64,000 nucleotides of DNA from Eledone cirrhosa (lineage: Eukaryota), in assembly GCA_964016885.1 (NCBI GenBank), contig OZ024759.1:15934001-15998000 (forward strand), in the 5' to 3' direction. Each line of letters starts with the position of its first letter. Within the stretch, counting starts at the first letter, position 1. The position numbers were made by a program, and so were the translations under genes. Below are positions 3,086 through 58,509 of this stretch, one piece after another. The notes below the pieces were generated by a model that had not been told where the DNA came from, searched no databases, and saw only the letters and a list, made by a program, of their open reading frames with translations.

Positions 3086-3534
3086 GAAGGGAGAAATGAC
3101 TTGATCAGGTTTAGAGTAAAAGAAATCTGTCATAACATGTGTGGATATTTTTGATTTAGTTTTTAATGTTTTCCTTCAGGTCTATTTTAGTGTTTGTTTG
3201 TAGTTGTTTTTGCTCTTTTTCTTTTTTGTTGAAATTAACGAATGGCGGATAAATCAGATTCAATCATCAGTTCACAGTTTTCTCAATCTCTCTCTCTCTC
3301 TCTCTCTCTATATATATATATATATATATATATATATATATATACAGATAAATACACCAATTAATGGTAGGGTCTAAGCCATATGAAGAACTCAATGTAA
3401 TCCGTATGTAGATGTCGTGAAGCAGATTTTAAAATTCAAAATGTCAACGATATAATTCATTGGAAGCAGAGTCAAAATAATGCAAATAGTGAAAACAATG
3501 AAATTAAACAAAATACGGGTAATTCATAGTAAAA

Positions 3535-3675
3535 CTCATTATTTTACGATCGTTTCTGGGGGGTAGTTCTCCGTATGTTCATTCTATTAGTGATCTATGT
3601 AAAATATACTACAAATTATCAAAGTAAGAAAATATACAAACGTCTTCTCTACCCGCCCTCTTCAGAAATAATGAG
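3535..3675 (-). ncRNA. Type I hammerhead ribozyme motif (family A, minus copy)
   Basis: Minus strand: CTCATTATTT-CTGAAGA-long stem II-GAA-ACGATCGT-A-AAATAATGAG. Confidence 0.7.
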
Positions 3676-3714
3676 ATTTGTTTATTAAAGAATATAAAAA
3701 CATAATAAACAAAA

Positions 3715-3859
3715 CTCATTATTTCTGAAGACGGCGGGTAGTGAAGACGTATGTATATTTTCTTACTTTGATAATTTGTAATATATTTTACATAGATCAC
3801 TAATAGGATGAACATACGGAGAACTACCCCCCCCCCAGAAACGATCGTAAAATAATGAG
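3715..3859 (+). ncRNA. Type I hammerhead ribozyme motif (family A, plus copy)
   Basis: 10-bp stem I CTCATTATTT/AAATAATGAG; core CTGAAGA 3725-3731; GAAA 3838-3841; palindromic stem III ACGATCGT; GUA triplet. Confidence 0.75.
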
Positions 3860-3957
3860 TTTTACTATGAATTACCCGTATTTTGTTTAATTTCATTGTT
3901 TTCATTATTTGTATTATATATATGTGTGTGTGTGTGTGTGTGTGTGTGTGTGTGTGT

Positions 3958-4135
3958 AAAAGTTAAACAGAAATAACAACACAATCGGTACAGTATATGG
4001 AAGGAATATATTAGGTGAACGCTTGAAAAAGCAGGAAGAGGGTCTTGACGTTTCGGACGCTAGTCCTTCATCAAAAGAAAGAATGATAAATAAGATAGAT
4101 TGAAGGAACGGGTGTGCTGGAATTGGAAAAATATA
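3958..4135 (-). mobile_element. Penelope-like terminal fragment (family B) with minimal HHR at 4043-4078
   Basis: Minus strand TCTT-TTGATGA-A-GGAC TAGC GTCC-GAAACGTC-AAGA (C3>U); homologous to 29035-29205. Confidence 0.7.
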
Positions 4136-4204
4136 TCTCTATATATATCTATATATATATATATATATATATATATATATATGTGTGTGTGTATATAAAT
4201 ATAT

Positions 4205-4360
4205 ATGATTCGCAATCGTGTGATGCGTTATGTCCTTGGGCAAGACACTTTATTTCACGTTGCTCCTTCTACCTGGAGTTGCGAACGATAGGGAGTATAA
4301 GCAACTGGAAAGACCAACGGAAACATTGTTTCCTCGGTCCGATTTGACGAAAATCGATCG
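4205..4360 (+). mobile_element. SINE fragment (GTCCTTGGGCAAGACAC type) fused to one copy of the 95-bp satellite module
   Basis: GGAAAGACCAACGGAAACATTGTTTCCTCGGTCCGA matches the array monomer; same arrangement as 26262-26460. Confidence 0.7.
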
Positions 4361-4380
4361 ACTGTGGATATATATGTACC

Positions 4381-54220: not shown

Positions 54221-54432
54221 CAATTTCTTTTCTTTTACAACCTTGCCACCAGGAAGGTGGCCGGTCAAAAAAATATACTCGAAATTAAGAGAAAGAGAAA
54301 ACATACATACATACATAGGTACATGGAGGGATATTTTTATATACATACATATATGTACATACATATATATAAATATATATACATATATATATATATTCCG
54401 ATGATTTGATCAGAGACACACACTGCATTTAA

Positions 54433-54651
54433 CCCTTTAGCATTGACATTATTTTATATTTACTATTGTTTTTTCACAGTAAAGGCTTTACCTCACATAA
54501 CATCTCACATAATATCGAATCTATGAGATTTTGAAAGTATTTATTTTGAAAACAATACCTTAACATTAGTTTGAGCGACCAGTTACAGCCAGTTTCAACA
54601 GAAAGAGGTAGAGAATTCTGACGGGTTTTGGCCGGTTTGAACATTAAAGGG
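54433..54651. mobile_element. piggyBac-type MITE
   Basis: TTAA|CCCTTTAGCATT...AACATTAAAGGG|TTAA. Confidence 0.8.
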
Positions 54652-55628
54652 TTAAGGTCGAGTGACGCAACTTCGAGTGATTAGCGGCCTTTCAACTCTC
54701 CTGATCAATGAAACAATTGTTGATACAGTAAATAAAACCCTTTTTGCATAGCCGACCATGTTATTCTACACACTTTCACTATATATATATATATATATAT
54801 ATATATATATATATATATATATATATATAACGAAGGAAATGTAGTAAGGAACCAGGTGGACCATAACGCACCAAAGTACTCAATACTTGGGGTAGTAGAG
54901 TGGGTAATAGAGTGGGTAATAGTCGGGGTCTTACTGGTTCCTATATATATATATATATATATATATATATATATATATATATATATATATATATATATAT
55001 ATACATATATAAGTATATACATACATATTTGTGTATTATTGTTGGTGTTGCATGTTGGATCTCCGTCGTTTCCGACGACGAGTGTCCAATTGAACAGCCT
55101 GGCGGTGAAATTAAGGTTTGAGTTGTTCACCACTTACAGTTATCCTTTCCATATTCTGTACCGATTGTGTTGTTAATTATGTTTACCTTTTACACACACA
55201 CACACATATATATATATATATATATATACACACACACACATATATATATATAACGCTATATATATATAGTAATAATAATAAATTTGAAGACTAAAATCCA
55301 AAGAGGGCTCGATAAGGATAAATATATATCAAATATATAAGAACCGTAGAGCAATGTTATTTTAATAAATATATATATATATATAGAGAGAGAGAGAGAG
55401 ATACAAATATACATACATATATACTAATGTATATATATATATTTATTTATATATTCAAATATACATATATATATACTAATATATATATATATATATACAT
55501 ATATATATATACAAATATACATACACATATACATATACTAATATATATATATATATTTATATATATATATATATATATATATATATACAAATATACATAC
55601 ATATATACTAATATATATATGTATATAT

Positions 55629-55883
55629 AAATGTAATCTGAGTTTTTCGAATATTAATAACAACATTCGATTCGTTTGCAATTATGCAAATAAGCCTCAA
55701 TTCTCTAGCCATGTCAGTAGAATGAACACTTCATTCTTGGTCTTGTGTTGGCATGCGAACAGTTGAGGCTTGCTTGCATAGTTGCAAACGAATCGAATGT
55801 TATTATTAATGCTCTGAGTAATTGCTGGCCTTGTGCCTCAAGTAGAAACAATTATTAATATTCGAAAACCTCAGATTACATTT
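55629..55883. repeat. Inverted repeat in (TA)n; right arm interrupted by a SINE tail
   Basis: AATGTAATCTGAG.TTTTCGAATATTAATAA.AACATTCGATTCGTTTGCAA and its reverse complement; the insert is flanked by ATTATTAAT (55802-55810, 55851-55859). Confidence 0.85.
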
Positions 55884-57059
55884 ATTGTATTCAGCGATGT
55901 AGAGCGAAATTTTCTTTTATATATATATATATACAAATATACATAATTATATACTAATATATATATATATATATACAAATATACATACATATATACTAAT
56001 ATATATATATATATATATATATATATATATATATATATACAAATATACATACATATATACTAATATATATATATATATATATATATATATATATATATAT
56101 ATATATATACAAATATACATACATATATACTAATATATATATATATATATATATATATATATATATATATATATATATATATATATATATATATATATAT
56201 ATACAAATATACATACATATATACTAATATATATATATATATATATATATATATATATATATACAAATATGCATACATATATACTAATATATATATATAT
56301 AAATATACATATATACACACATATATATATATATATATATATATATATATATATATATATATATATATATATATATATTAGTATATATGTATGTATATTA
56401 GTATATATATATGTATATTTGTATATATATATGTATATTTGTATATATATATATATATATATATATATATATATATATATATATATATATATATATATAT
56501 ATATATATGTATATATATATATATATATATATATATATATTAGTATATATGTATACACACACACACACACACACACACACACTTACAAACACACAAACAC
56601 ACACACACAGCATAACAAATCAAATAGACACGGCAATCATATAATAAAAGCGAGTACGAAACAATTAGAAAGTCATATATTTTTCATTTGTGTATTGACG
56701 CCTTCTGGTTGAGAAACTCCGACGCACGTCACACTGACAAATGAGAAAATATATACAAGCAGACGATAGGGTGACTGATAACGTACTTATTTATCGTAGA
56801 GAATTGTGCAATAAAACTCCTCTCATAAAATCGGTATCAGCTTCTAATAATTTTCCTTTTGATCTTATGTTTCTGTTGCAGGCAGTATCTTGTAGCTCAC
56901 ACATTACCACACATACACACTCACACACTCTCACATTATATATATATATATATATATATATATATATATATATATATATATATATATATAAACACACACA
57001 CACATATATATATATATATATATATATATATATATATATATATATATATATATATACGT

Positions 57060-57247
57060 AGGTCCCGGATTGAGTCGGGGATAACCACAGTAAGTAAGGT
57101 ACTCAATACATGGCAGAGTAATAATTTTTTATTTTATAGAAGGAGCTTCTACAGGACTAGTACTGTTTCATTCAGATGAAATCTTCAGTGCTTCCTGAAG
57201 ATTCCATCTGAATGAAACAGTACTAGTCCTGTAGAAGCTCCTTCTAT
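57060..57247 (-). mobile_element. Penelope-like terminal fragment (family C) with a fold-back 5' end
   Basis: Homologous to 19533-19666; ~52-bp arms at 57137-57188 and 57195-57246. Confidence 0.75.
57190..57238 (+). ncRNA. Type I HHR motif (family C)
   Basis: GCTTC-CTGAAGA-TTCCATCTGAAT-GAA-ACAG-tactagtc-CTGT-A-GAAGC. Confidence 0.75.
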
Positions 57248-57609
57248 CTATATATATATATATATATATATAAACACATACAAACATACAGGTGGGACTT
57301 ACACATTCACAGAAGAAGTAAATAAAAATACATAGGTACCTTCTACACATTTACATATATATATGTGTGTGTGTATGTGTGTGTGTGTTTGTGTATATAT
57401 AGTATATATATTTATATGTATATATGTATATATATATATATATATTTATATATATGTATGTATATTTATATATATGTATGTATATATATATATTTATATA
57501 TATATATGTATATATATATATATATATATTTATATATATGTATGTATATTTATATATATGTATATATATATATTGTATATATGTATGTAAATTTATATAT
57601 GTAAATTTA

Positions 57610-58509
57610 TAATAATATTGCCAGAATTAATAACAGAACACACTCACTGTTTGGTTGGTTTTCGCTTCTGTATCTTTTATATCTCCACAGTTAATTCATT
57701 TGGTCCTCAATGTTTACAATTGACTGACCAACGGTCAAAAATACAGATATAACGTAGATATAAACACATATATATATAGTCTGACAAAGTTCTTTCGTTG
57801 CACATCTGCAACATCATCAGTGGTACTATTATGTTCCTCCTGTTGTATTGTATGTCTACGCCATCCTTATTCTATCTATTTATATATATATATAATTTTC
57901 ATTTAAATGATTAATTATATATATATATATATATATATATATATATATATATATATATATATATATATATATATATACATACATACATACACACACACAT
58001 ATATATATATATATATATATATATATATATATATATATATATATATATATATATATATATATATATATATTTATGTATATGTATGTATATATATATGTGT
58101 GTGTGTGTGTGTATGTATGTATATATATATATATATATATATATATATATATATATATATATATATATATATATATATATATATATATATATATATATAT
58201 ATAATTAATCATTTAAATGAAAATTATATATATATATAAACAGATAGAATAAGGATGGCGTAGACATACAATACAACAGGAGGAACATAATAGTACCACT
58301 GATGATGTTGCAGATGTGCAACGAAAGAACTTTGTCAGACTATATATATATGTGTTTATATCTACATTATATCTGTATTTTTGACCGTTGGTCAGTCAAT
58401 TGTAAACATTGAGGACCAAATGAATTAACTGTGGAGATATAAAAGATACAGAAGCGAAAACCAACCAAACAGTGGTTGTGTTCTCTTATTATTTCTGGCA
58501 ATATTATTA
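57610..58509. repeat. ~900-bp palindrome (~300-bp unique arms plus mirrored microsatellite) with HHR-like motifs at 57777-57828 (-) and 58291-58342 (+)
   Basis: Arms are near-perfect reverse complements; CTGATGA-T-GTTGCA gatg TGCAAC-GAAA, with weak stems I and III. Confidence 0.9.

Follow-up and report, generated by a model that had tools for sequence, protein, structure and literature searches.

Eight inverted repeats (IR1 to IR8) lie within a stretch of 64,000 nucleotides of the 3.0 Gb genome of Eledone cirrhosa (assembly GCA_964016885.1, contig OZ024759.1, positions 15,934,001 to 15,998,000 of the forward strand; the whole stretch is referred to here as the window), of which about half is simple repeat and whose base composition is 34.5% G+C. 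These repeats are probably head-to-head stubs of the pseudo-long terminal repeats (pLTRs) of six families of Penelope-like elements (PLEs) and of two further units devoid of any open reading frame (ORF), each repeat likely being the product of one insertion in which both strands of a (TA)n tract were cut and reverse transcription ran inwards. An initial annotation, made from the letters of the window, had described eight inverted repeats with outward-pointing hammerhead ribozymes; all eight were recovered by self-BLAST after masking of simple repeats, with arm-to-arm identities of 76-99%, and family references mapped back onto the window placed the left arm on the minus and the right arm on the plus strand in eight of eight, in agreement with the orientation reported before. 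The families are named C (IR1), B2 (IR2), D (IR3), G (IR4), E (IR5), F (IR6), B (IR7) and A (IR8). Their description as unrelated fails for IR2 and IR7, as B2 and B are sister families that are about 81% identical. The annotation had omitted a tail that extends beyond the repeat on one side, which is found in seven of the eight inverted repeats, none being defined for IR5.

Judged by the proteins encoded next to related copies, the six families A, B, B2, C, D and G are ends of Penelope-like elements. For all six (IR1, IR2, IR3, IR4, IR7 and IR8) parents with a GIY-YIG endonuclease were found, four of them also with a reverse transcriptase (RT), which bears out the earlier suggestion of truncated PLE ends; by the wording of the initial annotation, such parents make these repeats ordinary PLE ends. 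Family G has an open frame of 821 amino acids (aa) at locus L239, which combines RT and GIY-YIG, lies 1.07 kb upstream of the hammerhead core, carries an inverted copy at its 5′ side and contains a YRDD motif that is invariant in 21 aligned sequences; the ESM Atlas clusters nearest to this protein have HTH_animal, GIY-YIG or RVT_1 in 18-100% of their members. Family C has a 671-aa frame (part of the RT plus GIY-YIG) at L169, with the core 776 nt after the frame, and family A has RT and GIY-YIG frames at L166 and L168, with the core 250 nt after the endonuclease frame. Remnants of both domains were present upstream of family B2 in two of the four regions examined (L385 and L387), while families B (L232, L234 and L236) and D (L094, L105 and L109) were preceded by GIY-YIG, the endonuclease only. 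In the window itself, tblastn gave no match to a PLE protein at E≤0.01, in line with the reported lack of an adjacent RT frame. PDB sequence searches found no RT, and matches to prion and methyltransferase entries in the Pfam and PDB sequence searches were weak and were taken as chance. The linker of family A reads CX4CxxC, as described for Neptune-type elements; the label Nematis may fit the other families. Two observations concern these proteins more generally: an open 784-aa frame with RT and GIY-YIG lies between two B copies (L233:2283-4634) and shares about 43% identity with the protein of family G, and an asparagine-rich stretch occurs between RT and endonuclease in the frames of L169 (C) and L239 (G). 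Asparagine-rich inserts are described for rotifer PLEs in sections of PMC3846280.

A complete unit, composed of an inverted pLTR, a pLTR, the ORF and a second pLTR, is present at G000:C1:5049879-5053406, and at L185, L187 and L198 the tail of the family G pLTR in front of the ORF continues into the ORF. The 3′ untranslated regions (UTRs) of G, C, B and B2 are long (about 0.8-2 kb), and insertions of family B are mostly stubs made of the pLTR only. Exact-pattern counts in the genome amounted to 8029 for G, 2545 for B, 1895 for B2 and 558 for F. A search of sequencing runs with the family G end returned no RNA data set among the matches listed.

The polarity seen in the window extends to the genome. 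Pairs of neighbouring copies on opposite strands and within 10 kb were counted among the first exact matches listed, and 77 of 82 such pairs run minus-then-plus (31:0 for G, 19:0 for F, for which 97 of the 100 listed rows were used, 21:2 for B and 6:3 for B2), so that the non-random polarity which the initial annotation had expected genome-wide was indeed found among these matches. Among the five exceptions, one consists of two separate insertions, one falls between adjacent palindromes and one is a mirrored duplicate. Direct joints are head-to-head in 114 cases and tail-to-tail in two; for unit E the joints were 14 to 0 in 51 loci. The 3′ end of each family comes in two positions, separated by 41-150 nt, and at both of them the sequence enters (TA)n; such flanks would conceal any target-site duplication. 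When the tail state was scored at the 85 classifiable joints, 81 combined one long and one short arm, three had two short arms and one had two long arms.

The point where the arms turn is sharply placed in two families. Among loci selected by pattern, the 5′ ends of 34 of 43 family B arms fall within 8 nt of each other, at the 5′ strand of helix I, and those of 38 of 47 B2 arms likewise fall within 8 nt. Both B and B2 keep a TATA box 29-30 nt ahead of the modal start, the spacer having diverged, and 29-30 nt is the usual spacing between a TATA box and the start of transcription. The arm start of B and B2 is thus likely to be the RNA 5′ end, as far as its sequence context indicates. Solo, tandem and lopsided B copies begin at the same place. 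As a separate observation, 79 family B arms genome-wide have in common two extra bases at their start, which long copies were not seen to have (L299-L328). A spliced intron ending at helix I of family B was also considered; no copy with the donor tested was found, and the idea was rejected for that donor only.

We propose that the PLE endonuclease would cut both strands within the (TA)n tract, and that two RT reactions would then proceed inwards, one from an outer initiation site, giving the tailed arm, and the other from an inner site, giving the short arm. The 3′ ends of the two complementary DNAs (cDNAs) would be joined through a few bases of microhomology, and therefore the RNA 5′ ends would lie at the centre. 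For B and B2, reverse transcription by the enzyme would likely begin in the front pLTR and reach the RNA 5′ end after 60-135 nt, where it would run off; palindromes of about 190 nt that turn at the hammerhead would result. The parents, the polarity, the one-sided tail, the (TA)n flanks and the clustered 5′ ends of B and B2 are the observed part of this model. In vitro work in sections of PMC11167929 showed, for the protein of an anole PLE, cutting and extension of both strands and two internal sites of RT initiation, which delimit the tail; hammerhead cleavage was found unnecessary for insertion. A more far-reaching proposal, which we judge to have an even chance of holding, is that thousands of insertions record a PLE enzyme pair priming both strands at two fixed RNA sites, that the RNA of B and B2 starts at the first base of the hammerhead, and that E and F are moved in trans by this PLE machinery, with the use of active hammerheads without the G10.1-C11.1 pair, one hammerhead having a 106-nt helix II arm.

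The hammerheads were examined with a type I descriptor written post hoc, after the families had been seen, which found seven cores in the window compared to a mean of 0.055 and a maximum of two in 200 dinucleotide shuffles. Six of these cores belong to the inverted repeats (both arms of IR1, IR3, both arms of IR4, and IR6) and the seventh to a solo copy (19661, minus strand). A hammerhead motif, degenerate or partial in some cases, had been claimed for all eight repeats; at the level of the window copies the claim stands for IR1, IR3, IR4 and IR6, whereas the copies of IR2, IR5, IR7 and IR8 fail the descriptor. Only six of the 16 window arms pass it, and the left arms of IR3 and IR6 do not contain CUGANGA, the motif being confined to their right arms. 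At family level a putative type I motif is present in B, B2, C, D, E, F and G and is weak in A: CUGANGA and GAAA boxes, A15.1-U16.1, an NUH site and helices I to III were all found. In the seven families other than A, helix I has 5-14 bp; helix III is a stem of 4 bp in B and B2 and a palindrome in the remaining five. At the opening of helix II, five families (B, B2, D, E and F) have U.U; family C has C.A there, together with a 106-nt arm, and family G has A-U. The G10.1-C11.1 pair with a bulge, as described for PLE hammerheads, was found in family A only, in which helix I is interrupted and helix III has 2 bp even in the family sequence. A U.U opening of helix II is known in other natural hammerheads (sections of PMC3088659 and PMC7229834), and an axolotl hammerhead with U.U reached 22% cleavage (PMC7229834, in part).

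What speaks most for these putative hammerheads is that sequences unrelated to each other recurrently show the same fold. In the alignment of B and B2, 94% of the cells are paired, with one compensatory pair, which is not above shuffles; in 25 copies of E the cores were not significantly better conserved than the flanks (0.90 vs. 0.86, p=0.09), as expected because the copies are decaying. Of the 552 matches in an Rfam scan of the window, the 150 listed were all to sub-threshold hairpin families, none of them a hammerhead. The cleavage activity of the hammerheads is a prediction; the ribozymes would act for the RNA of the parents, probably in dimeric form, and the stubs are likely dead. Low activity and a need for dimers are described for PLE hammerheads in sections of PMC4209133. 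The suggested masking of the ribozyme by its own antisense arm is only a folding prediction: the first core was paired in the predicted folds of five of five two-core repeats, it was unpaired in IR3, and it was paired in IR6 despite the lack of an antisense copy of the core.

IR5 and IR6 derive from the ORF-less, terminally redundant hammerhead units E (311 nt) and F (1297 nt), which agrees with the part of the initial annotation that had proposed retrozyme-like, non-autonomous units. In unit F the tail continues into a non-coding body and then again into a hammerhead, as seen in 30 of the 30 loci fetched by the post-tail sequence; same-strand neighbours of F are 1.0-1.9 kb apart in six of seven cases, and the best match of the unit to PLE proteins had an E-value of 0.97. 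Unit E is old, its copies being mostly about one unit long, and one exact pattern of its core gave four genomic matches; the unit junction is crossed in 34 of 51 distinct loci, and in one of the 51 a short PLE match was found away from the unit. Both units would be carried in trans, likely by PLE enzymes, and F is better called a non-autonomous PLE-type element working like a retrozyme. As a further observation, family F carries a SINE-like (short interspersed element) insertion of about 200 bp at the identical spot in many loci.

Several observations weigh against the two-ended reading. RT was not seen for families B and D, no parent of E or F was found among the best 40 matches per search, and Pfam gave one sub-threshold match to GIY-YIG (E 0.005) and none for the full frames. 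Of the 114 head-to-head joints 29 could not be classified as tail or short; most joints come from family B, whose joint set was enriched in palindromes by two junction-spanning queries. Families A, C and F show no 5′ hot spot and that of D is weak. The hot spot of G, where nine of 31 arms start on two neighbouring bases, lies about 70 nt upstream of the core and lacks a TATA at −30; the Penelope promoter of D. virilis is internal and TATA-less. The short palindromes (4-6 nt) and small overlaps at the junction hot spots of B, G and D fit priming by snap-back, and in IR8 the mirrored sequence includes, on each side, about 170 nt of DNA from outside the element, the arms being 98% alike compared to 94% to other copies.

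These last points favour the explanation that the second arm arises by self-priming or snap-back, either of the cDNA or, as proposed in sections of PMC3846280, of antisense RNA, with the one-sided tail produced by endonuclease resolution (sections of PMC8557442). Junction palindromes are read in this way in PMC3846280, IR8 mirrors local unique DNA and has private variants common to both arms, and its 40-nt string of island plus junction was found nowhere else in the genome by exact pattern. However, solo and tandem B copies, as well as arms whose partner is cut elsewhere, begin at the same base, many junctions have inserted bases instead of overlaps, and in vitro work on another PLE reported that RT starts at two sites, with both strands being used (PMC11167929, in part). 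We consider snap-back, the main rival of the two-ended model, a rather unlikely origin of these repeats. Far less probable is that the short palindromes move as independent units, whether fold-back ribozyme RNAs or elements like miniature inverted-repeat transposable elements (MITEs), each being copied in one piece while the antisense arm keeps the ribozyme in check. In favour of this, a few junctions are letter-identical at several B loci and folding predictions for two-core repeats have the core paired, but junctions differ widely between loci, arm length within one family spans tens of bases to kilobases with unequal outer ends, IR3 and IR6 have a core in a single arm, and the cores of the 25 E copies mentioned above are not better kept than their flanks. 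A MITE or foldback DNA transposon proper was rejected in view of the unequal ends, the varying arm length and parents that encode RT and GIY-YIG. Assembly artefacts or chance pairing of abundant repeats can be all but dismissed: although the genome is repeat-rich and IR8 folds back without a spacer, the arms differ by substitutions (76-99% identity) and by the tail, and the polarities of 77:5 and 114:2 speak against it.

Within the window, IR1 consists of a left arm (3343..3703, minus strand) that is a family C end with a tail of about 140-150 nt and core C3 at 3665, and a right arm (3704..3917, plus) with the short end and a putative hammerhead at 3711-3863, which has a helix I of 14 bp, the core at 3725, the 106-nt helix II arm with a C.A mismatch at its opening, a palindromic helix III and a GUA site. 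IR2 joins a short B2 end with a mutated GAAA box (14421..14480, minus) to a tailed B2 arm (14485..14612, plus; core 14488) with a damaged helix I. The left arm of IR3 (29224..29335, minus) is a tailed family D copy truncated 3′ of the core and without a hammerhead, and its right arm (29325..29415, plus) has the short end and a candidate hammerhead at 29340-29381, whose helix II carries U.U at its base. IR4 has the short family G end on the left (29848..30014, minus; core 29945) and, on the right (30029..30288, plus), a tail of about 90 nt and a candidate hammerhead at 30093-30159. Both arms of IR5 are copies of unit E, the left (31758..31870, minus; core 31829) being old with a degenerate hammerhead and the right (31866..32110, plus; core 31963) 78% identical to the family consensus with a mutated GAAA.

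The inverted repeat of IR6 measures 44 bp: its left arm (51273..51395, minus) is the 3′ end plus tail of unit F, without a hammerhead, and its right arm (51392..51787, plus) has a candidate hammerhead at 51463-51536 and the short end at 51787, being split at about 51545-51735 by the abundant SINE-like repeat. In IR7 the left arm (57057..57188, minus) is a tailed family B copy that begins at C3, so that the 5′ strand of helix I is missing, and the right arm (57190..57247, plus), which we infer to begin at the RNA 5′ end, has the short end and a candidate hammerhead at 57190-57238 with one helix II mutation. IR8 comprises a left arm of family A (57607..57891, minus; core 57820), a centre (57892..58227) of mirrored (TA)n/(TG)n with an island of about 30 nt on each side, and a right arm (58228..58540, plus; core 58299) with part of the tail and weak helices I and III; it alone of the eight mirrors the microsatellite and island up to the centre.

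Outside the inverted repeats, a solo B2 copy with tail and putative hammerhead was found at 19538..19664 (minus), a diverged solo copy related to F (76%) at 15921..16140 (minus) and a diverged fragment related to family C (71%) at 13906-14012 (minus). At least four further non-SINE inverted repeats without CUGANGA are present (32959-32997, 39657-39762, 55630-55882 and 58659-58795), and those at 58659-58795 and 39657-39762 are centred on (TA)n. A SINE-like repeat of about 200 bp is very abundant and often tandem (5789-6713, 41579-42821, 49263-49706, 59539-60134 and others). A tandem array at 34737-38573 comprises 40.5 copies of a 95-bp unit with 95% matches; CUGANGA occurs in every unit, yet the array did not pass the hammerhead descriptor. 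Finally, a 146-aa frame at 53780-54220 (plus), without a match in a Pfam search, resembles that end of non-LTR elements of the R4/Dong type which encodes their restriction-like endonuclease.

Taken as head-to-head PLE ends, the repeats provide an extensive natural record of the way in which such elements probably insert, and sections of PMC8557442 name the origin of PLE inverted copies and one-sided tails as an open question. The large counts, together with an open 821-aa frame accompanied by thousands of near-identical ends, make the two-ended model directly testable. For annotation they are a warning, as such hairpins mimic MITEs and microRNA precursors. Literature searches found no paper on hammerheads in cephalopod PLEs, although the supplement of PMC8557442 could hold related families, and the main text of PMC13282606 does not contain the word “hammerhead”.

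With the endonuclease-containing (EN+) PLE insertions described in sections of PMC3846280 and PMC8557442, the families share a frame of RT with C-terminal GIY-YIG, partial tandems of pLTRs, the head-to-head inverted 5′ copy, the one-sided tail and (TA)n targets; they differ in the tail length (30-40 nt there, about 41-150 nt here), in the long 3′ UTRs of G, C, B and B2, and in the pLTR-only stubs of B. With metazoan PLE hammerheads, as treated in sections of PMC4209133 (Cervera and de la Peña 2014), they have in common the type I topology and a short or palindromic helix III, whereas G10.1-C11.1, highly conserved there, occurs here in family A only; the same sections report opposite-strand hammerhead pairs 100-700 bp apart and dispersed motifs from truncated PLEs. 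Anolis Poseidon (PAc; PMC11167929, in part) likewise shows two internal, tail-bounding RT starts, cutting and extension of both strands, an AT-rich target and a product shortened by truncation at the RNA 5′ end, but it represents a different family, and it is in the model proposed here that the two strands would use different start sites and be joined into inverted pairs. Units E and F resemble the non-LTR retrozymes of PMC7229834 and the preprint 10.64898/2026.07.22.740005 (both cited in part) in being ORF-less, tandem or terminally redundant, with one type I hammerhead per unit and PLE-like ends; within the monomer range of 150-450 bp given for retrozymes, E (311 nt) fits and F (1297 nt) lies far above. 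A PLE specialist would be unsurprised, because the class, the layout and the link to ribozymes are all published: inverted pLTRs, one-sided tails, opposite-strand hammerheads and PLE-derived ORF-less ribozyme units are already known, and the present contribution lies in the counts favouring a two-ended mechanism, the 1.3-kb ORF-less unit and the hammerhead variants.

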